The notes: a model not told the origin generated them from the letters alone. A stretch of DNA of 30,850 nt from a virus (IMGVR_UViG_3300037421_000080:106086-136935); one strand, 5' to 3'; shown: positions 2,787-24,138, counted from the stretch's first letter. Numbers and translations are program-made.

Positions 2787-3662
2787 TTATTCCTTGAAGA
2801 CAAATTTCCTGATTCTTTTGATTTCTTCTTTTTTACAAGAAGCGGGATCTTTTCCTGTATCCAATGTTATGGTTAAAGTTCTTCCGGGGAATATACTGAC
2901 TTCTTCGCTTAGTTTTCTGGCCATCTCTTGGGCTTTAGGTTCAGAATCGTAGCAGATTACTCTAAGTGGGTATTTACTTATTTTGTCAACTTGTGATCGA
3001 GAGTAGGAAACGCCTAGAGTTGCTACCCCTCCTGGTCCTATAGCGATAGCATCAAAAATGCCTTCCGTTACGATGATTGAGTGCAAAGCCTTGTCGCTAC
3101 CGAACAGCAAGCTCTTGGCCGGAATGCTCTCCTCTTCTGGCCTGGCATTGACGTAGCGGTAGCCCTCATCCATAAGGCTCCGAGTCGTCCACGATACTAT
3201 CTTGTTCCTATGCAATATCGGCAAAAAGAGCCTCCAGGAGAGCCTTGTGGCCATGCCGATTCCTTGTATTCCCCACTCCCTTGCCAGCTCGTCTGGATCG
3301 AAGTTCCTGCTTCGCAGATAGTCCCTGTGGATGGGCAGGAGAGGCCCCACTCCGTTGGGGATCACTAGCTTGCCAGTTGGTTTTTCGGCCCTCGGGGCGT
3401 CGGTATCTAACCCCCCTAGGAGGGCCTTTATAACGTGCCACGGCTTGCCGGAGGACTCGACCAGAGCTTCGGCTAGGCTATGGGAACCGCACTTCCAGCA
3501 CTTGGCTGCACGACTAGAGAGAGCGATGCCAAGGCCATACTTCCCCGTGCCTTCTCCGCACCAAGGGCAGATGATCCCCAGCCAGCCGACGGTGACGTGG
3601 GGAGTCTCACCGGCTTGCTTGTACTCTATCTCCAGCTCTTCGAGGATCTCGGTGATATTCAT
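2787..3662 (-). CDS. DNA primase (Zn finger plus TOPRIM domain)
   Basis: CPWC...CWKC Zn finger; VTEGIFDA and CYDSEP TOPRIM motifs. Confidence 0.85.
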   Translation of the reverse strand: MNITEILEELEIEYKQAGETPHVTVGWLGIICPWCGEGTGKYGLGIALSSRAAKCWKCGSHSLAEALVESSGKPWHVIKALLGGLDTDAPRAEKPTGKLVIPNGVGPLLPIHRDYLRSRNFDPDELAREWGIQGIGMATRLSWRLFLPILHRNKIVSWTTRSLMDEGYRYVNARPEEESIPAKSLLFGSDKALHSIIVTEGIFDAIAIGPGGVATLGVSYSRSQVDKISKYPLRVICYDSEPKAQEMARKLSEEVSIFPGRTLTITLDTGKDPASCKKEEIKRIRKFVFKE

Positions 3663-3967
3663 TTCTTATTGACTGTGAGATCGAGTTGTTCTTTATGCTT
3701 GAACGAGAAGGAGAATCCGCACTCTCCGCAGGAGCAGCGGTAGGAAACAAAGAACTCCCCGCCCCCGTCGGTCCCTAATTCCCAGTCCTCCCGGAGCGTA
3801 GCTCGTCCCTCTTCGTCGTTACCCGCTTCGAGTTCCTTCATCTTTTTCAGGAATTCCTTCTGCGGGATCTTGCCGTAGGACTCGTAGATCTCCTTCCCTA
3901 CTCTTTCCTTTTCGTCTTCCTCTTTCTTGATGCACGCGGGACAGCCAGTCCAGTTGTTGGCGCTCAT
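3659..3967 (-). CDS. Hypothetical Zn-binding phage protein
   Basis: CPAC near the N-terminus and CSCGEC near the C-terminus; ATGA-type coupling to neighbours. Confidence 0.68.
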   Translation of the reverse strand: MSANNWTGCPACIKKEEDEKERVGKEIYESYGKIPQKEFLKKMKELEAGNDEEGRATLREDWELGTDGGGEFFVSYRCSCGECGFSFSFKHKEQLDLTVNKK

Positions 3968-4188
3968 CTTGCTTTCCTTTCTTTGAGCAGTTTATGCGTG
4001 TCGGGCAGCAGCCTCTCCGCTATCTTGGAGGCACTGGCCCAGGTCACCTCCCAGCCATCGCTCCACTCCCCGTTGTCCTTCAGTTTTAGGACAGAACCGG
4101 GGATGGCGAATCTCTCCGGGAGCCAGGTGGTTTGGCGCTGGTTCCTGCGGGTCAGTTGACATTGACGGTAGAAGATTTCATTTGGCAT
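3964..4188 (-). CDS. Hypothetical protein
   Basis: 74-aa ORF coupled to its neighbours. Confidence 0.62.
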   Translation of the reverse strand: MPNEIFYRQCQLTRRNQRQTTWLPERFAIPGSVLKLKDNGEWSDGWEVTWASASKIAERLLPDTHKLLKERKAR

Positions 4189-4432
4189 CGGCGAGACCCT
4201 CCTTGATTATTTCCCCAATCGTTTTTTCGTCTGCTTCCTTGATGAATGTTTCAAGGGCAGTTAGTCCCCAGCGCTTGATTCGGTATCTCCTTAGTTGCTT
4301 GATGAAATTGGCTATTCCCTTTTTGAATCGCTTATCTCCGGGACTGTTGCAAAGTCTGTGGGCATCCAATAGCGCCAGTTGATCCCTCTCGGCGTAGATG
4401 CAAGCCAGCCGTAGCAATTCTTCCAGTTTCAT
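4178..4432 (-). CDS. Hypothetical protein
   Basis: ORF 4178..4444; likely start MKLEELL at 4432. Confidence 0.55.
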   Translation of the reverse strand: MKLEELLRLACIYAERDQLALLDAHRLCNSPGDKRFKKGIANFIKQLRRYRIKRWGLTALETFIKEADEKTIGEIIKEGLADAK

Positions 4433-4749
4433 CAGTCTAGCCACTCCACATCAGAGAAACGATAGTTCTCCTCGGCCTCCAGTTCCCAATCGTCTTCCTG
4501 TTGCTCATCTTGGATCTGCTCTACCAACCTCTTGGCATGGGGTATGGGCTCTTCCTTGTTCAGGTGGACGTTATCGACGATCTCTCCCTCTGGGTTGTGT
4601 AGCCTCAGCTCCGACCAGACCTTGAGGGAGCCAGCGAACAGGCCCATGACCCTGCGGCATTCCCACTCCGGGCCGCAGAAGATGCCTCGGGGCGGCCAAT
4701 TGTTGACTTTCATGATTACTCGCCAGAGATGGGGTTTTCCGTTTGTCAT
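4432..4749 (-). CDS. Hypothetical protein with acidic tail
   Basis: 105-aa ORF, ATGA overlap with the helicase stop, GGAGG RBS. Confidence 0.55.
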   Translation of the reverse strand: MTNGKPHLWRVIMKVNNWPPRGIFCGPEWECRRVMGLFAGSLKVWSELRLHNPEGEIVDNVHLNKEEPIPHAKRLVEQIQDEQQEDDWELEAEENYRFSDVEWLD

Positions 4750-6152
4750 CCTGCCTCCTCCGTTTCCTGTTCCTTTTGTAGCTCAATTGTCAGCAAGTCG
4801 AAGATGTCGTAGTTGTTCCCTTCGGTAGTTCCCCCATCTAACACCTGGTCGATGATCTCCTGCTTGTTTTGTAGGATCTCGACCAGGCGGACTTCGATTG
4901 TATCCCTTCCCACCAAGTACCAGTATTTCGATCTCATGCCTTCCTTGCCTCTGCCTATGCCCCTTGTTCTGCCCTCCGCCTGGGTGTGGGCTGTAGGCAC
5001 CCAGGCGAATTCTATCGTGGCGCTGTTGGGGACCCCCATGGCGGACCAGCCCTCACCTGCTGCCTTGATGTTGCCAAACAGTAGCTGGGTCTTCTTGGAG
5101 GTCAGGAACTTATCGTAGCTCAATTGACGGAATCTCCCTGTAACTGCTCCAGTCACCAAGACACTTTGCCTGTGGTACTTTTCGTGGAGGGCCTCCAGGA
5201 TCTTGCGGTGGATGCCAAATACGATTAGCTTCTCGTCACACTCCTGGAGGTAGTCGTCGATCCACTCACAGACTGCCTTGAGTTTGAGTTCAGACACGAG
5301 TTGCTTCAAATATGAAATCATTGTGACTCGTTCGGCTCTAGCTGATCGCCTAGCCTTCTCATGGCTGTACTTCTCAGCTAGCCATCTCAGAAACTCCCTT
5401 CGAGCGTAGTTGTATTGCTTGCGGTCTTCGATCTCCAAGGGGAGGATGATACGTCGTTTGGGAGGCAAATCTTTTAGAACGTCAATTTCTCGCAACCTCA
5501 AAAGACATTCTTTTCCAAGTTTGCGGTGTAATCTCGGCAGTTGGGTCGCTCCCTTAAACTCCCATTGCCCGAACCTCCCCCGCTTGGGATCGCAATAGGT
5601 CATGGCGTAGGGATAGAAGTTAGGGTACATATCAGGGCGGACGATATGCAGAGGGTGGTATAAGTCCGCCGGGCGGTTGGCCAGAGGGGAGCCGGAGAGC
5701 ACCATGACTGGATCTATCTCCTCTGCTAGTTCCTTGGCTGCTTTGGACCTCTTGCTCTCGGCATGGCAAACCGCATGACCTTCATCGAAGGCCACGACTT
5801 GGATTTTGAGTCTTTTCAAGTAGGGAAGCCACGCTGCCAGGATGTCGTAGTTGATGATAGTCAGAGGGGGCACATCGATCAGCTTCCTCCACTTTCTGGG
5901 TCTCATCCCCTCCAGAATCTCTGTTCTCATGCTGCAATGCTTGGCTGCCTCGCGAGCCCAGTTCCACTTCAATCCGGCAGGGCACACCACCAGAGCCGGG
6001 CGTAGCTCTGGATGGCATACGAGGTACATGAGATAGAGCAGGCTCTTGCCCAGTCCGTAGTCCCAGGCCACGAGGGCGTTCCCGCCGAACTGCTCCAGCT
6101 GCCACAGGCCCTCCTTCTGGTAGGGGTAGGGCTTCGTGTTCAGCTTCGGCAT
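4746..6152 (-). CDS. SNF2-family (HARP/SMARCAL1-like) helicase/translocase
   Basis: PYPYQKEG, YGLGKS (motif I), INYDIL, FDEGH (II), LSGSP (III), AAGEG (V), QAEGR (VI); likely start MPKLN at 6152. Confidence 0.9.
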   Translation of the reverse strand: MPKLNTKPYPYQKEGLWQLEQFGGNALVAWDYGLGKSLLYLMYLVCHPELRPALVVCPAGLKWNWAREAAKHCSMRTEILEGMRPRKWRKLIDVPPLTIINYDILAAWLPYLKRLKIQVVAFDEGHAVCHAESKRSKAAKELAEEIDPVMVLSGSPLANRPADLYHPLHIVRPDMYPNFYPYAMTYCDPKRGRFGQWEFKGATQLPRLHRKLGKECLLRLREIDVLKDLPPKRRIILPLEIEDRKQYNYARREFLRWLAEKYSHEKARRSARAERVTMISYLKQLVSELKLKAVCEWIDDYLQECDEKLIVFGIHRKILEALHEKYHRQSVLVTGAVTGRFRQLSYDKFLTSKKTQLLFGNIKAAGEGWSAMGVPNSATIEFAWVPTAHTQAEGRTRGIGRGKEGMRSKYWYLVGRDTIEVRLVEILQNKQEIIDQVLDGGTTEGNNYDIFDLLTIELQKEQETEEAG

Positions 6153-16364: not shown

Positions 16365-16559
16365 ATGGAAAAAGATCCCAATGCGGTAGCCCTCGGTCGT
16401 AAGGGAGGGAAAGCCCGTGCGACCAATCTTAGCCCGGAACGCCTCCGGGAAATTGCATTGTTAGGGGTCAAAGCAAAAAGGGAGAAGGCTAGATGTTACA
16501 GATCAATTACCAAGAGTACATCAAGAGCGACAGATGGAGAAGAAAGCGAGAAAAAGTAA
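16365..16559 (+). CDS. Small basic RKGG-motif protein
   Basis: KDPNAVALGRKGGKARA..LSPERLREIA pattern. Confidence 0.62.
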   Translation: MEKDPNAVALGRKGGKARATNLSPERLREIALLGVKAKREKARCYRSITKSTSRATDGEESEKK

Positions 16560-17113
16560 TCAAACGGGCTGGAGGAGTTTGCGAGGAATGCAGGAAGGGG
16601 CGGATTCGGCATGTCCATCATTTGACTTACAAGAGGCTAGGAAACGAGTGGCTGTCTGATCTATTGGGGTTGTGTTTTGGCTGCCATCAGGCTAAGCACC
16701 CCAACAGGAGGTTGAGCTTTGGTTGTAGGAGATCAGATATAAGAAAGGTAGAAAATCCGGAGGAGGTATTGGCTAGGGAAGAGAAAGAATTCCCGTTCAA
16801 TTTAGAGAAGATGAAAATCAAAGCGAAGCGAGAGCCTCTTCCCAACAAAGCCGACATTTACACGCCTCGTCTCCAGTTTCTTGTGAAAGTCTGTTCTCTT
16901 CTCCAGAAATGGTCTAAGAGAAAACCATTCTCTCTTCCTCTAAGGTTGGCCTCGAAAATAATTGGTGATTCTCCGGAAGGTTGCAAAGGGGGCTTTTACA
17001 TTCTCCAATCGCACGGTATCCTGGAGTTGGTAGAGCTAGGAAATAACTATGATGGAAAGGCGAGCACTTATTGGTATCGAGGAGAGGTAGAAGATGAGCA
17101 ACTTCCTCATTGA
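16493..17113 (+). CDS. HNH endonuclease with C-terminal winged-helix-like region
   Basis: YQEYIKSDRWRRKR...CEEC...HVHHLTY.RLGNE..SDLLGLCFGCH. Confidence 0.75.
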   Translation: MLQINYQEYIKSDRWRRKREKVIKRAGGVCEECRKGRIRHVHHLTYKRLGNEWLSDLLGLCFGCHQAKHPNRRLSFGCRRSDIRKVENPEEVLAREEKEFPFNLEKMKIKAKREPLPNKADIYTPRLQFLVKVCSLLQKWSKRKPFSLPLRLASKIIGDSPEGCKGGFYILQSHGILELVELGNNYDGKASTYWYRGEVEDEQLPH

Positions 17114-17741
17114 TCCTCACCGGGAAGAAGCAGCGGTCGCTATCGCCCAGCGAGAAGATCTTATCCGGGCGGTTGAGGAGCTCCGCTACAATGAAGGTGC
17201 TCTCCAGGCTGCTGCCTGTGAGATGCTTAACGAACTCTGCCAGCTTCAGAAGGAAAATGAGCACCTTAAGAAATCTCTCTCTGCTGCTCTTTCCCGATCT
17301 CGCTTCTCAGTCCAGGATCCTCCCGAGAAAAAGAGAGGACTAGTGATGAGGTTTGGGAAGCACAAAGGCAAGTTGGTCAAGGACATCCCCGTTGAGTATG
17401 CCCGCTGGCTGCTCAGCGTAAAACGGGACGATATTCTCCGAGATGGTTGCTTTGAGAGGTCCTCCGATATGCACCTTGGACCAGCCCTGATGAAAGTGGT
17501 GCTGGGCAAGGGCATTGCCAGGCTAGATGACGGCATCCGGGAGCTAGTGGTGGAACACAAGAAGAAGTACCGGAGCTTCGACGACCAGAGTTTCCTGGCC
17601 TGGGTTGGATCGAACAAGATGAGGAAGCTCCGGATCCTCTGGCTGGGCATCGCCTTCTACAATAAGCAAAGACATAAAGAAAAAGCGATCAAGAAGCTTG
17701 CCGAGAAGAGTGAATCAGAGCAGCCATGCCAAGTCTCCTAG
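17094..17741 (+). CDS. Hypothetical protein with DUF3820-like motif
   Basis: MRFGKHKGKLVKDIPVEYARWLL. Confidence 0.62.
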   Translation: MSNFLIDPHREEAAVAIAQREDLIRAVEELRYNEGALQAAACEMLNELCQLQKENEHLKKSLSAALSRSRFSVQDPPEKKRGLVMRFGKHKGKLVKDIPVEYARWLLSVKRDDILRDGCFERSSDMHLGPALMKVVLGKGIARLDDGIRELVVEHKKKYRSFDDQSFLAWVGSNKMRKLRILWLGIAFYNKQRHKEKAIKKLAEKSESEQPCQVS

Positions 17742-19954
17742 AATTCCCCCCAGAAGCCATCGACCAAGACGAGCTTGCCAAGGATGTCTGCCGGGCATCC
17801 TTCCGGGATTTCGTCAAGATGTTCTGGCATGCCATTCCGGGAGCCGGGAAGCTGATCTGGGGATGGCACATAGACATCTTCTGCCAGGAATTGCAGATAG
17901 TTGCAGAGAGGGTGTTCGCTGGTATTCCCGCCGAGTACGATCTGGTTTGCAACGTTAGCCCAGGTACAAGCAAAAGTTCAGTATTCAGTATTCTGTTCCA
18001 GCCTTGGACATGGACGAGAATGCCTCATGCCCGCCACATCAACGCATCCCACACAGAGTCTCTCGTTCTTGATCTTGCCAATAAATCTCGTGCTGTAATC
18101 AATAGCGATCTGTACCAGACACTATTTCCTGAGATTGAACTCCGTTACGACCAGGACACTAAAGGGTACTTTGCCAATACATTGGGAGGCTGTCGCTACG
18201 CTTGTACAGTCGGGGGGAAGAGTCCTATGGGGATGCATGCCCATTTTTTGAATGGGGACGATCTCCTCGATCCGCAGAAGGTTTTGTCAGAAGTTGAGCG
18301 TCAAACGGCAAAGGAGTTTGTCGAGAATGGGTTACCTACTCGCATGACTGACAAACGGGTCTCGGTTATTTCAATCGTCTCTCAGAGATTGGGCAAGGGA
18401 GACCAGACGGATGTGATGATCGAGGTAGGAAATAGGGAAGGAGCAAGGCATGTCAGGCATCTGTGCATGCCCTGCGACGATTCCTGGCCCATCTATCCGA
18501 CAGACGAGGAGTTTACGATCTATCGGGAAGGCAACCGAATAGAGAAGAAAACTCTTCCCGAGATGTATGAGGAAGGAGAAGGATTGATGGATCCGATCCG
18601 CCTTCCTGCCGATGTGTTGAAGGCGTATCGAGCTAGAGGGGAATACTATTATGCTGGCCAGTTCGGTCAATCTCCACGCCTTCGGGGCGGTGGGATGTTC
18701 AAGGAAGGCTACTTTCTCAATAAAGTTCGGTCAGCTCCTTTCAATTCAGAACGAGTCAGATTTTGGGATAGAGCTGCAACTTCTGATGGGGGCTGCGCAA
18801 CGGCAGGGGTGCTAATCGGGAAGCACGACGATCGGTATTATGTTGAGGATGTAGTATGGGGTCAGTGGGAACCGAATGAACGGAACAATCAAATTGTAGC
18901 GACGGCCCATAGGGATCGTATTCGCTACGGAAGACACGAGCCTACTCATGTTATTGAAGCAGAGCGAGGATCGACTGGTCTAGAATCCTACCAGAGGATT
19001 GCCGGTCGTCTTGCTGGATTCAAAGTGAAGGAAGATATGCCTTCTGGCAGTAAGGATGTAAGAGCAGAGCCCTTTGCAGACCAGTGCGCTGCGGGAAATG
19101 TATTTATTGTGGATAATGGAGAACACGCCGGCCTAGGAAAAGCAACATGGGATGTGAATGCTTATATCCGGGAATTGGTTGATTTTCGCCCGCTTCCGGG
19201 GAAGAGGATTGGTGGCAGGTGCGATAGGGTTGATGCTAGCAGTGGCAGTTTCAACCTCCTCTCCGGCCGCAAGAAGGCAGGCTCCCTCTACATCCTCGGC
19301 ACTGGTGTCAAGAAGGGCATGCTCAAGATCGTGGTGGTCTCCAGGGAAGAGCTGACTGACCTGGTGATAACGGACCATTTCTGCCTGTTGGTTTTATTTG
19401 AGGATCCGCCTTATGAAAAGCAAGAACCGGCATTCGGTGACACATCTGGAAAGAAAACCAAGACAGCCCTCAAAGAAGAGAAAAACGGAGTTGCTGTGGG
19501 GGCCATCGCCAATGGTCAAAATCCACCGGATGCTACGGGAATGGGAGCTGATGGACGAGTTCCTCAGAAGTATGGTCTCTCAAAATTATTAGACACCCTC
19601 ACCCTGACCTTCGCTGACCTGGACCCCAAGGACTTGCAGGACGTGTGGCACGATCCTGTAGAGCCGTGGGGTAAGCTGCCCTCCGAATTGATTATGACCC
19701 TGGACCACGGTAAGAAGCTCTGGGGTTGCCTGACCAAGAAACGAATGCCGCCCGCTGAGATCTGGGTTCTGTGCGACGAGGGCGGGGAGGATGGGAGGGC
19801 ACTAAGTGCAGCGATGGCGATGTGTGAATTGTTAAGATTGCCAAGACAGCAGACGATCCACGTGGTTAGCTCTCCAGAGATGAGCCATGACGGGGAGCCG
19901 GGGAATCAGCACGTGTTCAATCAGGTCAAGGCATCCAGGGGGCTGGTGATGTGA
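17726..19954 (+). CDS. terL: Terminase large subunit with C-terminal extension
   Basis: NVSPGTSKS (Walker A), LNGDDLLDP (Walker B), IVSQRL, AGQFGQSP, RFWDRAA and DRVDA nuclease motifs. Confidence 0.9.
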   Translation: MPSLLEFPPEAIDQDELAKDVCRASFRDFVKMFWHAIPGAGKLIWGWHIDIFCQELQIVAERVFAGIPAEYDLVCNVSPGTSKSSVFSILFQPWTWTRMPHARHINASHTESLVLDLANKSRAVINSDLYQTLFPEIELRYDQDTKGYFANTLGGCRYACTVGGKSPMGMHAHFLNGDDLLDPQKVLSEVERQTAKEFVENGLPTRMTDKRVSVISIVSQRLGKGDQTDVMIEVGNREGARHVRHLCMPCDDSWPIYPTDEEFTIYREGNRIEKKTLPEMYEEGEGLMDPIRLPADVLKAYRARGEYYYAGQFGQSPRLRGGGMFKEGYFLNKVRSAPFNSERVRFWDRAATSDGGCATAGVLIGKHDDRYYVEDVVWGQWEPNERNNQIVATAHRDRIRYGRHEPTHVIEAERGSTGLESYQRIAGRLAGFKVKEDMPSGSKDVRAEPFADQCAAGNVFIVDNGEHAGLGKATWDVNAYIRELVDFRPLPGKRIGGRCDRVDASSGSFNLLSGRKKAGSLYILGTGVKKGMLKIVVVSREELTDLVITDHFCLLVLFEDPPYEKQEPAFGDTSGKKTKTALKEEKNGVAVGAIANGQNPPDATGMGADGRVPQKYGLSKLLDTLTLTFADLDPKDLQDVWHDPVEPWGKLPSELIMTLDHGKKLWGCLTKKRMPPAEIWVLCDEGGEDGRALSAAMAMCELLRLPRQQTIHVVSSPEMSHDGEPGNQHVFNQVKASRGLVM

Positions 19955-19993
19955 AGCGATAACATGATATAGATTCAACAAAGGAAAGCAACG

Positions 19994-20998
19994 ATGAAAA
20001 CGCACTCACTAGATGAGATCGAGAGGCTGCTGGACAAGGCCCTTATGCCCCAAGATCTCTTCGATGTGATCCCCCTCAACGAGCTTCTGTTCTCAACCCA
20101 TCCAGACCGGAACCCCGGTGACAGCAGGGCGGAGATCCTGTTCAAGAGGATTAGTGAGTTCGCCTTGGCCAAAGACAAGCCAGCCCCAACGATCAAGTCC
20201 CCCAAAAAGAGAACCTACTCCCTTGTCAAGATGATCGAGGCTGGAGATGTAGCGGATATCTACCGGGCCACAGCGGGATCGAAAGACTACATTGTGAAGA
20301 TCTCCCGCGTGCCCGATACCCATTCCATGCTGGAGAACGAGAGGAAGGCTCTCACTGCCCTAATAACCGACGCGGGCGACCTGACATACCACAAGTACCT
20401 GCCCGTGCTGGTAGAATCCTTCCCTGTCAAGCAGAGAAACATCCAGCAGCGAGTCAACGTGTTCACCTGGCAGGAGGGCTTCCACACTGCCGCCAAGATT
20501 CACCAGCAGCACGAGGCTCTGGGAGGCAGGCACCTGGCCTGGATCTTCAAGCGCCTGCTGACTGCTTTGGGCTTCGTACACAAGCGAGGCTGGGTTCATG
20601 GAGCGGTTCTACCGGAGCACTGCCTGATCCAGGTGGAGAATCATGGATTGCAGCTAGTTGGCTGGGGGCAGTCTGTTGAAGTGAACCACAGGATCCACCG
20701 GATCTCTAGTCGATACAAGGAATGGTATCCGTCGGAAGTTCTGGAGAAGAAGCTGGTAGGCTCCGAGACGGATATCTACATGGCTGCCAAGCTGATGATC
20801 TATTTGGCAGGAGGGGATCCTGTGAAGGAGATCTTCCCCGACATCACCCCAGAGCCGATCAAGCGATTCATCCGCTCCTGTCTGCTGCCCGGAAGGCTGA
20901 TGCGTCCTGGTGATGCCTGGCTGCTCTTTGAGGAGCTAGATAATTTACTGAAGGCGATCTATGGTCCACCCAGGTTCATCAAGTTGGTGATGGCCTAA
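19994..20998 (+). CDS. J-domain-like plus Ser/Thr kinase-fold protein (predicted pseudokinase)
   Basis: THPDRNPG; AGDVADIY, IVKIS, ENERKAL, VHGAVLPEHCLI, YPSEV and TDIY motifs. Confidence 0.82.
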   Translation: MKTHSLDEIERLLDKALMPQDLFDVIPLNELLFSTHPDRNPGDSRAEILFKRISEFALAKDKPAPTIKSPKKRTYSLVKMIEAGDVADIYRATAGSKDYIVKISRVPDTHSMLENERKALTALITDAGDLTYHKYLPVLVESFPVKQRNIQQRVNVFTWQEGFHTAAKIHQQHEALGGRHLAWIFKRLLTALGFVHKRGWVHGAVLPEHCLIQVENHGLQLVGWGQSVEVNHRIHRISSRYKEWYPSEVLEKKLVGSETDIYMAAKLMIYLAGGDPVKEIFPDITPEPIKRFIRSCLLPGRLMRPGDAWLLFEELDNLLKAIYGPPRFIKLVMA

Positions 20999-21021
20999 CT
21001 TTTTCCAAGGAGTTTGCACTT

Positions 21022-22026
21022 ATGGGAAGCACACGCTGGTCTGACGACCACTACGACGACCGAGTCAAGCTGAGAGCTGCCACAGGCGTAGCTGCTTTCG
21101 GCTATCATGACGATGTGAAGACGGGGAAGACAGCGAACAAGGTCCACGACAAGCTGGACGCCAAGCGCCTGAGCTCTCTCGGCGCCAAGCTACGGGATTC
21201 GCGGGATAGTGACGCCCACCCAGAGTCCCACGGCGTTGCGATTGTGTTCGACGTGACGGGTTCGATGGGTGAGGTTCCGAGGATTCTCCAGAAGAACCTG
21301 CCCAAGCTGATGGGGCTGCTGATGCGTAAGGGCTATCTGGAGCACCCCTCCATCATGATCTCCGCTGTGGGCGATGCGACCTGCGACCATATCCCGCTCC
21401 AGATCGGCAACTTCGAGGCAGGTATCGAGATCGAGAATGATCTCACCAACATCGTGCTGGAGGGCGGAGGAGGCGGTCACATCACCGAGAGCTATGAGCT
21501 GGCGATGTACTATCTCGCCAAGTACACGGCAATGGACAACTTCGAGAAGCGGAACAAGAAGGGCTATCTCTTCATCATTGGAGATGAGACGCCCTATCCT
21601 GAGGTGGATCGAAGGCAGGTAAAGGACCTGATTGGGGATGACCTCCAGGAAAACATTCCAACAGCGGACATTGTGGAGGAGCTGACTCGAACCTACGATG
21701 TCTACTATGTCCTGCCGCACATGACCAGCAATTACAAGGACCACCGGGTCACGGACTGCTGGAAGAAGTATTTTGGCCAGCGAATCCTGCATCTGGAGGA
21801 TCCGAATACGGTCTGTGAACTGATCGCCTCCGCCGTAGGAGTAGCCGAGGGCAAGGTGGATGTGGATGGAGTAGCCAAGGACTTGATCGACTTCGGTGTT
21901 TCCAAGTCCACTGCCTCTGCCGTTGGCAAGGCTCTGGTCCCTGTATCCGCTGGAGCATTGAAGGTGAAGGGAGCTGAAGTGGATGTTCCCTCCTCCGGAG
22001 CTGGGTCGGGTGTTGCGACGCTGTAG
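21022..22026 (+). CDS. von Willebrand factor A (vWA) domain protein
   Basis: IVFDVTGSMG MIDAS-like motif, AVGD, EGGGGG..ESYEL, LFIIGDE; AAGGAG RBS. Confidence 0.82.
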   Translation: MGSTRWSDDHYDDRVKLRAATGVAAFGYHDDVKTGKTANKVHDKLDAKRLSSLGAKLRDSRDSDAHPESHGVAIVFDVTGSMGEVPRILQKNLPKLMGLLMRKGYLEHPSIMISAVGDATCDHIPLQIGNFEAGIEIENDLTNIVLEGGGGGHITESYELAMYYLAKYTAMDNFEKRNKKGYLFIIGDETPYPEVDRRQVKDLIGDDLQENIPTADIVEELTRTYDVYYVLPHMTSNYKDHRVTDCWKKYFGQRILHLEDPNTVCELIASAVGVAEGKVDVDGVAKDLIDFGVSKSTASAVGKALVPVSAGALKVKGAEVDVPSSGAGSGVATL

Positions 22027-22033
22027 GTTGGTA

Positions 22034-22080
22034 GGGGCGGGGTCCTGGCTGGAGTTTGGAGTTGGCCAGGATCCCGCTCT
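22034..22080 (+). other. Intergenic RNA hairpin between the vWA and PurA-like genes
   Basis: About 19-bp stem with six G-U pairs on the plus strand and no U-tract. Confidence 0.6.
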
Positions 22081-22104
22081 CTCCATCAACAATGGGATTC
22101 AACA

Positions 22105-23358
22105 ATGAAGCAGGCAATTATCACGGTAGGGATGGGGTTTGGCGACGAGGGCAAGGGAGCCACAGTGGACTACCTCTGTCGGGAGTTCAATGCAGACCTT
22201 GTAGTCCGCTACTCCGGAGGCCCTCAGTGCGGCCATAATGTAGAGCTGCCCGACGGCCGGCGGCACACCTTCTCGCAGTTCGGTTCTGGAACCCTCGTAG
22301 GTGTTCCTACCTACTGCACCAAGGAAGTGATTATTGATCCTCTGGCTCTTCGGAGAGAATCCGATTCTCTGCATGAAGTCTTTGAGATCAGGGATCCTAT
22401 GGTCTACTGGTCCGCCCACCCGAAGTGCCTGGTGAGCACCGTCTTTCATCAAGAGGTTAATCGGATCAGGGAGAGAGCGAGATGTGAGAACAAGCACGGG
22501 AGCTGTGGGCGGGGAGTAGGCGAGACCAGATCCTACAGGCTGAAACACGGCAACGATGCTCCTGTGGTGGGCGATCTGAAGAATAATTTGGTAGTTCTGG
22601 AAGACAAACTTCAACTCCTCCGTGAGCGGAGCTTGCAGGACGTGCAGGAGCTAGACCTATCGGATGCCAGCGGGAAATTGTTTGATCTTTCTGTGAAGGA
22701 AGAGGCCAGGAGGCTCTATTCGATTGGTTATTTGAACAATGACCTACCTCATTGCAAGACTGCGATCTTCGAGGGGGCGCAGGGCATCCTCCTGGACGAG
22801 TGGCGAGGCTTCCATCCCTACACCACCTGGAGTACGGTGACTCCAGAGGCAGCTTTGGATCTAGCGGCGGAGTATGGGGCAGAAGTTCTGGTGCTGGGTG
22901 TTACAAGGGCTTACATGACTCGGCATGGGGCTGGCCCATTCCCTACGGAGTGGAAGATTTCTACTTTGGAGGATAAGGGAAACCCTTATAATGAGTGGCA
23001 AGGCGACCTAAGATGTGGCTGGCTAGACTTCGCCCTGTTGGAGTACGCTCTCTCCGTCTGCAAGATTGACGGGTGGGCGGTCAATTGCCTGGATGATTTG
23101 AGGGATGTGGTCCCTTATGTCAACATGAGATATGGTGGCTACCAGCTAAAGGCACCTGCCTTGCCGTCCCTGAAAGCACAGGAGCATATGACCAGGGAAC
23201 TGAAGCATGTAAAGACTGAGCTGTTTCCTACGACTGTATCCAACATCCTTGGGCAGCTGGAGGGAATGGCCCCTGTGCTGGTGAAGTCCAATGGACCGAC
23301 TCACAAGCACCGGACAATGAGCAAGCTTCCTCCATTCAGGAGGGTGAAAAGTGCTTGA
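22105..23358 (+). CDS. purA: Adenylosuccinate synthetase-fold enzyme (divergent PurA-like)
   Basis: GFGDEGKG, GGPQCGHNV, FEGAQGILLD, HPYTTWS, TRHGAGPFPTE, RCGWLD and NCLD motifs. Confidence 0.85.
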   Translation: MKQAIITVGMGFGDEGKGATVDYLCREFNADLVVRYSGGPQCGHNVELPDGRRHTFSQFGSGTLVGVPTYCTKEVIIDPLALRRESDSLHEVFEIRDPMVYWSAHPKCLVSTVFHQEVNRIRERARCENKHGSCGRGVGETRSYRLKHGNDAPVVGDLKNNLVVLEDKLQLLRERSLQDVQELDLSDASGKLFDLSVKEEARRLYSIGYLNNDLPHCKTAIFEGAQGILLDEWRGFHPYTTWSTVTPEAALDLAAEYGAEVLVLGVTRAYMTRHGAGPFPTEWKISTLEDKGNPYNEWQGDLRCGWLDFALLEYALSVCKIDGWAVNCLDDLRDVVPYVNMRYGGYQLKAPALPSLKAQEHMTRELKHVKTELFPTTVSNILGQLEGMAPVLVKSNGPTHKHRTMSKLPPFRRVKSA

Positions 23359-23440
23359 CAGAGTTCACAAAATTGTCTGGACGCTCAGCTGGCTGGCCTC
23401 TATCAGTTTGGTGGCTCTTATCGCGTTCCATAGGAGATGA
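23351..23440 (+). CDS. 29-aa hydrophobic peptide
   Basis: Read manually: AGGAGG-N7-GTG; MLDRVHKIVWTLSWLASISLVALIAFHRR. Confidence 0.5.
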   Translation: MLDRVHKIVWTLSWLASISLVALIAFHRR

Positions 23441-23444
23441 TTCT

Positions 23445-23534
23445 GTGATAACAATCGAGAAAGAAGCGCATTTCTGGGAAACGACGATCTATCTCTTGAT
23501 CGCGATCACCTTTGTACTTCTTCTTATCCAATGA
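23445..23534 (+). CDS. 29-aa hydrophobic peptide
   Basis: Read manually: AGGAGA-N7-GTG; MITIEKEAHFWETTIYLLIAITFVLLLIQ. Confidence 0.52.
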   Translation: MITIEKEAHFWETTIYLLIAITFVLLLIQ

Positions 23535-23544
23535 AAGGAACATC

Positions 23545-24138
23545 ATGGATCCCATCAAAACGATTGGTAAGCTGCTGAATGGCCCCGAAGAGCGGGACTG
23601 CATCCACATCGCGATCATGGCAGCGCAAGCTACAGAGGATTTGCGGCCTGGAGATGAGGTCGGCCTGGCCTATGGTACAACGAACCAGATCAGGTCGATG
23701 GATTCGGTGTACGACCTCCCCGCCATAGGCATCGTGGATCCCTTCTACGGCTTGAAGAAGATGGTCGGAGACAAGTGGGTGAAGCGCTGGCAGGTCGAGA
23801 AGGGCCAGTGGTGCTGGGTATTCCTCTTCCCCGGCAGTATCACGGGACTGCGCCACAACTGGACGCATCCAGCGATTGATAATGTTCAAGCCCCCAAGAA
23901 TGAATCAGAGGAGTGGCTGAGGCGGTTTGCAGACAAATGGAACTTTGACTACAGCGAGATGGTCTATGAGTCCCAGACCGAGGAGGGCTACGTCGTGGCA
24001 AGAGGCATCGACCTACACAGCCGTGACGAGCTGGCTCCGGGTGATGAGGATCTGTTCTGGAAGCACATGGAGGCGCTGACGGGCAAGAAGTTTGGCGAGG
24101 AGCATCGGCTGGAGTTTGGGTGGTCGTGTTCCTGCTGA
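23545..24138 (+). CDS. Conserved-looking hypothetical phage protein
   Basis: RDCIHIA, GIVDPF, LFPGSITGLRHNWTHP motifs and terminal CSC; AAAGGA RBS. Confidence 0.72.
   Translation: MDPIKTIGKLLNGPEERDCIHIAIMAAQATEDLRPGDEVGLAYGTTNQIRSMDSVYDLPAIGIVDPFYGLKKMVGDKWVKRWQVEKGQWCWVFLFPGSITGLRHNWTHPAIDNVQAPKNESEEWLRRFADKWNFDYSEMVYESQTEEGYVVARGIDLHSRDELAPGDEDLFWKHMEALTGKKFGEEHRLEFGWSCSC

Follow-up and report, generated by a model that had tools for sequence, protein, structure and literature searches.

A phage-borne copy of a widespread cassette combining a J-domain pseudokinase, a von Willebrand factor A protein and a PurA-like ligase with a rebuilt aspartate loop

The DNA analyzed here, referred to below as the window, is a 30,850-nucleotide (nt) stretch of a viral genome (IMGVR_UViG_3300037421_000080:106086-136935), which forms the terminal 30.8 kb of a 136,935-bp IMG/VR virus record with an estimated completeness of 79%. 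It contains three consecutive genes, which encode a J-domain protein with a protein-kinase fold, a protein with a von Willebrand factor type A (vWA) domain, and a paralogue of adenylosuccinate synthetase (PurA). The data showed that this trio is a single conserved unit and the phage-borne copy of a widespread cassette. The comparison of the PurA-like proteins further suggests that their GTP-dependent chemistry is kept, while the pocket for aspartate is lost. The structural and genomic parts of this explanation are nearly certain. As a whole, including the ligase chemistry and a role linked to nicotinamide adenine dinucleotide (NAD), it is favored with modest confidence, and the NAD-related role taken by itself is tentative, being in our judgment possible rather than probable. 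The three genes are the following (aa, amino acids; ORF, open reading frame; AF2, AlphaFold2):

19994-20998, plus strand: gene 1, J-domain and protein-kinase fold, 334 aa (ORF listing, Pfam, PHROG, AF2)
21022-22026, plus strand: gene 2, vWA protein with integrin I-domain fold, 334 aa (ORF listing, phrog_2971, Foldseek)
22105-23358, plus strand: gene 3, PurA-paralogue ligase, 417 aa (ORF listing, Pfam PF00709)

An earlier description of this locus, made from the DNA alone and called here the sequence-only reading, had reported three co-oriented, closely spaced genes directly after the large terminase gene terL, each with a recognizable motif. The coordinates, the strand and the spacers all agreed with this description, and the motifs were located at residues 36-38 (HPD) of gene 1, 77-81 (DVTGS) of gene 2, and 13-18 (GDEGKG) and 223-227 (EGAQG) of gene 3.

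The distribution of the cassette was analyzed in loci collected by scans with vWA alignments, which were the best 80 of at least 549 confirmed bacterial matches and 28 viral loci. Neighboring genes were scored using hidden Markov models of the three families, and the denominators for the PurA-like gene are the loci with room for it. In 71 of 74 bacterial and 24 of 27 viral loci, the vWA gene was followed within 1.5 kb by a PurA-like gene; a kinase-like gene was adjacent on the upstream side in 63/76 and 20/28 loci, respectively. The full order kinase-like, vWA, PurA-like, with the spacing seen in the window, was present in 59 of the 71 fully evaluable bacterial loci and in 19 of 27 viral ones; a small number of viral loci have the kinase-like gene downstream instead. 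The trio travels together in phage as well as bacterial genomes, and the similar bacterial clusters mentioned by the sequence-only reading were indeed found in the bacterial loci.

The vWA family comprises 886 clusters (50% identity, E ≤ 1e-30) and is present in at least 549 species-representative genomes. Among its carriers are Actinomycetota, Planctomycetota, Bxz1-type mycobacteriophages and many jumbo phages. When 50,697 phage records were searched by tblastn, the vWA protein was matched in 220 and the PurA-like protein in 237, in the same taxa, which were 201 Mycobacterium, 10 Rhizobium and 6 Vibrio phages. In a Planctomycetota contig of 5.37 Mb, and likewise in contigs of Gemmataceae, the chromosomal surroundings of the cassette were ordinary. 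In Mycobacterium phage Catera the order is gp249 ("kinase"), gp250, the small gp251, and gp252 ("PurA-like"). Vibrio phage SRILMA and Rhizobium phage TM61 carry the vWA and PurA-like genes with a methionine-rich non-kinase protein upstream of them; this Met-/Gly-rich low-complexity protein fills the kinase-like slot at positions 4102-4821 of the Vibrio phage locus (L002) and 3657-4448 of the Rhizobium phage locus (L003). The Met-rich proteins, Catera gp251 and the small inserted ORFs of two further viral loci (L117 and L119) were without homologues in the other loci examined, and are therefore not core members. Hence, the invariant core of the cassette is the vWA protein together with the ligase, and the J-domain pseudokinase is its common third member.

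The PurA-like protein encoded by gene 3 matched the Pfam family Adenylsucc_synt (PF00709) with an E-value of 5.6e-56, and about 330 of its residues could be aligned with solved PurA chains (E 6e-30). Its scores against the NCBIfam equivalogs of PurA remained below the cut-offs (159 bits at best vs. 402; TIGR00184, 136.5 vs. 395.6), as did the score against PurZ, the phage PurA paralogue (NF038379, 35 bits vs. 300). To compare the active sites, 214 cassette-type PurA-like members were aligned with Escherichia coli PurA and phiVC8 PurZ, and two segments of gene 3 stand out:

22141-22158, plus strand: P-loop GDEGKG, with the equivalents of E. coli D13 and K16 (D and K each in 213/214 members)
22981-23013, plus strand: rebuilt "aspartate loop" N-P-Y-N-E-W-Q-G-D-L-R (E. 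coli counterpart G-N-E-F-G-A-T-T-G-R-R-R-R)

In E. coli numbering, Gly12, Asp13, Lys16, Gly17, His41, Gln224, Thr239 and Asp333 were retained in at least 99% of the 214 members. Among these, Asp13 is the catalytic base of E. coli PurA, His41 the catalytic acid, and Asp333 the residue that recognizes guanine, while the L-aspartate site consists of Thr300, Thr301, Arg303 and Arg305. The latter site was changed throughout the family, with Thr300 replaced by Trp in 209/214 members and Thr301 by Gln in 213/214, Arg303 deleted in 214/214, and Arg305 replaced by Leu, Phe, Ile or Met. Other changes were also uniform: Asn38 to Gln, Thr129 to Cys, Ser240 to Trp and Val273 to His in at least 97% of the members, and Thr42 to Asn in 198/214; Arg143 was not retained. 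The copy in the window bears the family set (Q41, C134, W242, H274, W298, Q299), and has Asp14 and Asp330 at the columns where phiVC8 PurZ has Ser and Asn.

The alignment shows that all residues which PurA needs for GTP binding and γ-phosphate transfer (D13, K16, H41, Q224, D333) are kept, and that the aspartate loop and part of the site for the 5′-phosphate of inosine monophosphate (IMP) have been swapped for the equally conserved Q38, C129, W240, H273, W300, Q301 and a hydrophobic residue at 305. This is the pattern of a family under purifying selection, in which GTP binding and phosphate transfer would be kept and the second-substrate pocket would now be more aromatic and hydrophobic. Because the GTP chemistry is predicted to be kept but the aspartate pocket lost, the product of the PurA-like protein is probably some nucleotide other than AMP. 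A canonical purA gene was also present in 5/5 bacterial carrier genomes, where it scored 566-610 bits and the paralogue 172-205 bits. The proposal of the sequence-only reading, that this is a dedicated module and not a purine salvage function, is thus supported by the co-occurrence across phyla and in phages, by the rebuilt aspartate site, and by the separate canonical purA. Its further proposals, that the pseudokinase and the vWA protein would control the enzyme and that the module would serve counter-defense or phage-phage exclusion, are conjecture; the functional lead given by the genomic context is the NrtR link of the bacterial copies described below. When the complex of the PurA-like and vWA proteins was predicted, the median score was 0.07, compared with a mark of 0.32, and one of three runs reached 0.38.

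The first protein of the cassette scored 30.5 bits against Pfam Pkinase, which is slightly below the cut-off of 31.7, and matched phrog_3043 ("kinase") with an E-value of 2e-28. Its AF2 model, which was built from a multiple sequence alignment of 41 relatives, had a pLDDT of 96, and the best Foldseek matches of this model were PknB, Aurora, PLK1 and TNIK (E ~3e-13). Two regions define the protein:

19994-20173, plus strand: J-like four-helix N-terminal domain, residues 1-60, with the HPD codons at 20099-20107 (AF2 model)
20594-20620, plus strand: degenerate catalytic loop VHGAVLPEH, followed by GWG in place of DFG at 20660-20668 (family alignment)

The HPD motif lies in the loop joining model helices 28-34 and 44-59, and it was retained in 45/62 bacterial and 21/24 viral relatives (66/86 overall). 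The Pfam DnaJ score of gene 1 itself was 15.6 bits against a cut-off of 27.8, and helix II is shortened in the phage copy; among the 41 aligned relatives, 16 matched Pfam DnaJ at E ≤ 0.01, with a best E-value of 8e-8. In the kinase fold, the Asp of the HRD motif is replaced by Ala, the catalytic Asn by His, and DFG by GWG. The HGAxxPxH sequence was universal among 86 relatives. The DFG position is occupied by DWC in most of them and by GWG in the clade of the window, so that the Asp of the DW(C/S) motif, which persists in most Actinomycetota and many viral copies, is lost in this clade. The β3 Lys and the αC Glu are conserved in the family. These replacements predict that the protein is catalytically inactive and cannot carry out classical phosphotransfer. 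Both halves of the description "J-domain pseudokinase" given by the sequence-only reading stood up to the comparison, and it is a fair name for this protein.

The vWA protein matched phrog_2971, a family of unknown function (E 1.7e-71), and had no match in Pfam, NCBIfam or PADLOC. Its AF2 model (pLDDT 74, pTM 0.77) was most similar among structures in the Protein Data Bank (PDB) to integrin I, collagen vWA and NorD vWA domains (Foldseek, E ~6e-6, probability 1.0, target TM at most 0.69). The conserved segments are a metal ion-dependent adhesion site (MIDAS) and the N-terminus:

21250-21264, plus strand: MIDAS motif DVTGS, residues 77-81 (D77, G80 and S81 invariant in two alignments)
21022-21057, plus strand: conserved N-terminal tail Met-Gly-x3-Trp-Ser-x3-Tyr, predicted to be disordered (alignment; model pLDDT)

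The MIDAS-type set is complete, because D77-x-T79-x-S81 is present and S/T157 and D188 are conserved, and metal binding is predicted from these alignments. The start Met-Gly-x3-[W/Y/F]-[S/D]-x3-Tyr was found in 109/111 loci and in 133 of 150 representatives of clusters at 50% identity, the 17 departing representatives being fragments or miscalled starts. Residues 1-11 had a model pLDDT below 50, and the matches covering the first profile position almost all begin at protein residue 1, so that the protein is rarely extended at its N-terminus. The motif was also retained in the phages without a kinase-like gene. The conserved, flexible and free N-terminal Gly looks like a docking or substrate motif.

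Some Bxz1-type phages have an interrupted vWA gene. In Mycobacterium phage Sauce it (gp259; L125:1501-3288) is a single 595-aa ORF annotated as "HNH endonuclease", which has an in-frame insert of about 255 aa compared with Catera gp250. The insert starts with Cys after KGY and ends with SSN followed by Cys-IFIGDE. This is an intein signature, and the putative intein would be placed in the strand leading into the MIDAS Asp. The vWA match was split into two pieces in about 12 of the 60 phage records listed, and two vWA representatives, of 581 and 595 aa, in which the match is likewise divided into two stretches, look like Sauce gp259 with its putative intein.

To describe the genomic context of the cassette, the flanking ORFs were clustered, which gave one dominant neighbor, a co-directional upstream gene that accompanies the cassette in 66/80 bacterial loci and in 5/28 viral ones. 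According to Pfam, this neighbor consists of NUDIX and NrtR_WHD domains, as seen in L006-L008 among others, and this is the architecture of NrtR, the ADP-ribose-responsive regulator of NAD metabolism. In L006 two tandem TTAGTGT-N7-ACACTAA palindromes cover the promoter region just 5′ of the NrtR-type gene. A NAMPT gene was located inside the cassette locus in two viral records; these are the jumbo-phage loci L099 and L115, from records of 416 kb and 208 kb, where an NrtR-like gene is followed by the vWA, PurA-like and kinase-like genes, with NAMPT in the same 13-kb locus. Genes of phosphoribosyltransferase-like and NMNAT/NUDIX proteins are located about 3-4 kb upstream of the cassette in Rhizobium phage TM61.

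A tree of 111 vWA proteins was calculated using FastTree; it is a quick, midpoint-rooted tree of the best-scoring loci only. Its bacterial part tracks families, including Nocardiopsidaceae, Streptomycetaceae, Micromonosporaceae and Thermomonosporaceae. The vWA protein of the window groups with Gemmataceae/Gemmatales, where its best identity is 60%, at a support of 91, which is not strong; that of Catera is sister to an Actinomycetota clade (support 95), and that of L090 is nested in Pirellulaceae (support 99). The virus label requires at least 3-5 changes on this tree. This topology is read as repeated exchange between hosts and phages, with descent that would be largely vertical in Actinomycetota, and it suggests a Planctomycetota host for the phage of the window. 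Such a pattern would fit a physiological module better than a fast-moving defense island.

The explanation that we favor for the cassette is the following. The ligase would phosphorylate the oxo group of a nucleotide-type substrate using GTP, and a nucleophile other than aspartate would then displace the phosphate, which would give a non-canonical nucleotide or conjugate. The vWA protein could be the obligate partner of the ligase, acting through its metal site and free N-terminal tail as a scaffold, an activator or an acceptor, while the pseudokinase may be a nucleotide-sensing or scaffolding regulator, whose J-domain can recruit host DnaK. Because the bacterial cassette stands behind an ADP-ribose-responsive regulator of the NrtR type, it would probably be switched on upon NAD+ breakdown. 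The phage copy, which is without NrtR control and probably on the terL transcript, could be an auxiliary module taken from a host, which would forestall or make good the depletion of NAD or nucleotides during infection.

Several observations weigh against this explanation. NAMPT was encoded anywhere in only 5 of the 28 viral records bearing the cassette. A search of the window for the NrtR box, based on the Planctomycete palindrome, gave one match at three mismatches, which is below chance, and no NUDIX gene was found in the 137-kb phage record (79% complete). The pseudokinase is dispensable for the core function, because a gene for a Met-rich protein takes the place of the kinase-like one in the Vibrio and Rhizobium phages. 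One related uncultured phage, represented by the loci L117 (7120-8505, minus strand) and likewise L118, contains a complete PurB gene (Lyase_1 and ADSL_C), which is divergent and beside the J-pseudokinase gene; in the phage record of the window, PurB, Hsp70 and HD genes were searched for and not found. The lyase gene of L117 and L118 would fit a succinyl-type intermediate, and is the best single point for succinyl chemistry of the PurA-like protein; as a general neighbor PurB was found in 0/108 other loci. In both loci three small extra ORFs separate the vWA and PurA-like genes.

The link to NAD can also be compared with the known phage pathways of NAD+ reconstitution, which are NARP1, consisting of Adps and Namat, and NARP2, consisting of Nampt and Nmnat. 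The likeness is that bacterial cassettes stand behind an NrtR-type NUDIX protein with a winged helix-turn-helix domain and palindromes, and that some phage copies are near NAMPT or NMNAT genes. The cassette itself, however, contains no NARP enzyme, and the phage copy in the window lacks an NrtR gene, its box and a nearby NAD gene. To our knowledge, NAD-related chemistry has never been shown for the PurA fold.

Among the alternatives, the one that survives best is a conflict system akin to the TerY-P triad, in which the vWA protein and the kinase would sense an invader and the PurA-like effector would deplete or poison the nucleotide pool, resulting in defense, abortive infection or exclusion. 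The TerY-P triad consists of a TerY-like vWA protein, a Ser/Thr kinase and a PP2C phosphatase, and is also listed as a defense candidate. A vWA gene adjoins the gene of a Hanks-type kinase fold in both systems, the kinase fold of gene 1 matches the PADLOC models MkoA (E 5.5e-14) and PD-T4-6, an integrase flanks the cassette in L006-L008, and the cassette is found in both phages and bacteria, all of which speaks for such a system. On the other hand, the kinase of the cassette is without catalytic residues and is joined to a J-domain, no phosphatase of the PP2C type or otherwise recognizable was found, and the third gene encodes a ligase, so that the analogy drawn by the sequence-only reading is only as deep as the fold. 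Furthermore, the vWA and PurA-like proteins match no PADLOC model, the regulator encoded upstream belongs to a metabolic class (NAD), and the carriers are lytic-type jumbo and Bxz1-like phages. The fact that the vWA tree of the 80 best bacterial loci tracks Actinomycetota families also suggests vertical inheritance, and not the turnover of a defense island. A conflict system is unlikely on this evidence.

The properties of the vWA tail bear on another alternative, which is a ligation of protein and nucleotide. According to this proposal the free α-amino group of Gly2 of the vWA protein would replace aspartate, a 6-oxopurine nucleotide would be joined to it, and the modified vWA protein would be the active product. 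Such "N-terminal purinylation", in which a purine nucleotide would be attached through C6 to the N-terminal Gly, could serve under NAD/ADP-ribose stress in bacteria and have been borrowed by large phages. It would explain the near-universal start motif on a disordered tail that is almost never extended. The motif persists without the kinase-like gene, which makes the ligase the likelier partner, and the vWA and ligase genes are almost inseparable. The ligase has also lost exactly the residues for the aspartate carboxylates and gained W240, W300 and Leu or Phe at 305. However, the tail may have a different role: one of its acidic residues, which is conserved, could coordinate a MIDAS metal, in self-association or autoinhibition, or the pseudokinase or DnaK could dock onto it. 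We consider both the ligation and its proposed use in NAD/ADP-ribose stress to be quite improbable.

The third alternative is that gene 3 encodes a working adenylosuccinate synthetase, which boosts AMP for the replicating phage as part of ordinary auxiliary purine metabolism, and that the two upstream genes are unrelated neighbors. The strong match to PF00709 and the presence of all catalytic residues could be explained in this way, as could the PurB gene beside the cassette in L117 and L118 and a formyltransferase gene near it in L119. Indeed, the cassette protein shares with PurA (EC 6.3.4.4; E. coli 1ADE/1CG0, and Yersinia 3HID) the fold, GDEGKG, Asp13, Lys16, His41, Gln224, Thr239 and Asp333. 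It is unlike PurA in the rebuilt aspartate loop with Arg303 deleted, in the N38Q, T129C and V273H changes, and in the loss of Arg143, and also because it is a second copy beside canonical purA, nearly always paired with a vWA protein. The replacement or deletion of T300, T301, R303 and R305 in 214/214 members, the NCBIfam PurA score well under its cut-off, the 96% linkage to the vWA gene in bacteria, the separate purA of the carrier bacteria, and the lack of PurB in the phage record of the window and in 108 other loci argue that this explanation is very improbable.

The last alternative, base replacement of the PurZ type, in which a precursor of 2-aminoadenine (Z) would be made from dGMP for a modified phage genome, takes its support from the PHROG label "2-aminooxy adenylosuccinate synthetase", and it is extremely unlikely, because the NCBIfam PurZ score is far under its cut-off, Asp is kept where PurZ has its defining Ser, Asp333, which specifies guanine and is replaced by Asn in phiVC8 PurZ, is kept as well, the Thr/Lys-rich aspartate loop of PurZ is absent from the family, bacterial chromosomes bear the same cassette, and the 137-kb record (79% complete) yielded no DatZ of the HD type and nothing closer to MazZ than a MazG-like match below threshold. 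This match lies at positions 87952-88104 of the record, about 18 kb before the window, and is part of a 176-aa frame (17.2 bits, E 8e-4). PurZ of phiVC8 and S-2L is like the cassette protein in being a phage-borne PurA paralogue with altered substrate choice, and unlike it in having Ser at the position of Asp13, using ATP, keeping the aspartate site, and traveling with DatZ and MazZ. The Ser at the position of Asp13 of PurA selects dGMP in PurZ (bioRxiv 10.1101/2025.10.22.683976).

Judged by these residues and gene contents, the cassette is neither PurA, PurZ nor a TerY-P triad. Among its closest known relatives are Catera gp249, gp250 and gp252, which have the same order, 34%, 38% and 39% identity, respectively, and share HPD as well as the HGA form of the catalytic loop. 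The Catera proteins differ in that the Asn of the catalytic loop is kept and DW(C) stands in place of GWG, and the extra small gp251 lies between the vWA and ligase genes. The Catera genes, among them gp252 with its label "PurA-like adenylosuccinate synthetase", and the phage copies in general bear annotations by similarity alone. In the searchable literature we found no description of the cassette and no functional study of the Catera-type genes.

The expression of the cassette in the phage was considered from its position and from the structure of its spacers, for which two further features are relevant:

17726-19954, plus strand: terL, large terminase, 742 aa, the upstream neighbor (phrog_38, E 1.9e-49; Pfam Terminase_6C)
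22034-22052 paired with 22062-22080, plus strand: hairpin of 19 bp with a 9-nt loop (folding free energy −39 kcal/mol, z −3.5)

The spacers are 39 nt between terL and gene 1, 23 nt between genes 1 and 2, and 78 nt between genes 2 and 3. Because the gap after terL is only 39 nt, and the scans for σ70 promoter and intrinsic terminator consensus sequences found no plus-strand site within 19000-24000, the transcript of the cassette is probably a read-through from terL. The long hairpin that the sequence-only reading had placed between the second and third genes was confirmed by folding, with 0/200 shuffles folding as stably. There is no run of T, which would give a U-tract, on its 3′ side, in line with the negative terminator scan of 19000-24000. 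When the gap between the vWA and PurA-like genes was compared in 104 related loci, it was shorter than 30 nt or overlapping in 62, and a spacer of 30-400 nt in 36. Seventeen of the 36 spacers folded with z ≤ −3 against mononucleotide shuffles, and all 17 are from Planctomycetota or viruses, counting one metagenome-assembled genome labeled Ilumatobacteraceae that is placed within the Planctomycetota clade of the tree. The stems of these hairpins reach about 30 bp, and their sequences are mutually unrelated. The fact that the position is conserved while the sequence is not suggests a role at the level of the transcript, where the hairpin could serve in processing, in stabilization or as a terminator without a U-tract, and would thereby adjust the balance between the upstream and downstream products.

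Several other features of the surroundings were noted. The 10-mer GATTCAACAA occurs exactly twice, at 19972-19981, which is 13 nt 5′ of the ATG of gene 1, and at 22096-22105, where it overlaps the ATG of gene 3; it was rejected as a meaningful motif, since its count at one mismatch was equaled in 9/100 shuffles. Downstream of the cassette there is a 208-aa ORF (23512-24138), for which PHROGs without an assigned function were the sole matches (phrog_11912, E 3e-22); it was not accepted as a member of the module, because it is without a homologue beside the cassette in 108 other loci. The region on the 5′ side of terL (16493-17741) contains a 215-aa ORF with weak matches only and an HNH endonuclease gene, for which more than one HNH family in PHROG was matched, at E 3e-11 in the best case. 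An HNH gene beside the terminase is a common packaging arrangement. Past its nuclease domain the terminase continues for about 220 aa at the C-terminus (19283-19954); a phosphatase in this extension found no support in sequence searches, which gave no Pfam or PDB match, even at E 10.

What is new here is the family-wide residue table, the Met-Gly start of the vWA protein, the recurrent hairpin of variable sequence, the host-matched phylogeny, and the candidate intein in the MIDAS strand. The phage labels "PurA-like adenylosuccinate synthetase" and "2-aminooxy adenylosuccinate synthetase", which concern more than 200 matched records, are probably wrong. The cassette is large and old, and the Bxz1-type phages make it open to genetics in Mycobacterium smegmatis, while the link to NrtR gives a testable entry point. 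A central fold of purine synthesis would have been re-tooled for a different reaction, as was the case for PurZ before the synthesis of Z-DNA was explained. Should the N-terminus of the vWA protein prove to be the acceptor, this would represent a new protein modification; should the cassette respond to the breakdown of NAD+, it could add a new arm to NAD/ADP-ribose homeostasis and to the contest over NAD+ between phages and their hosts.

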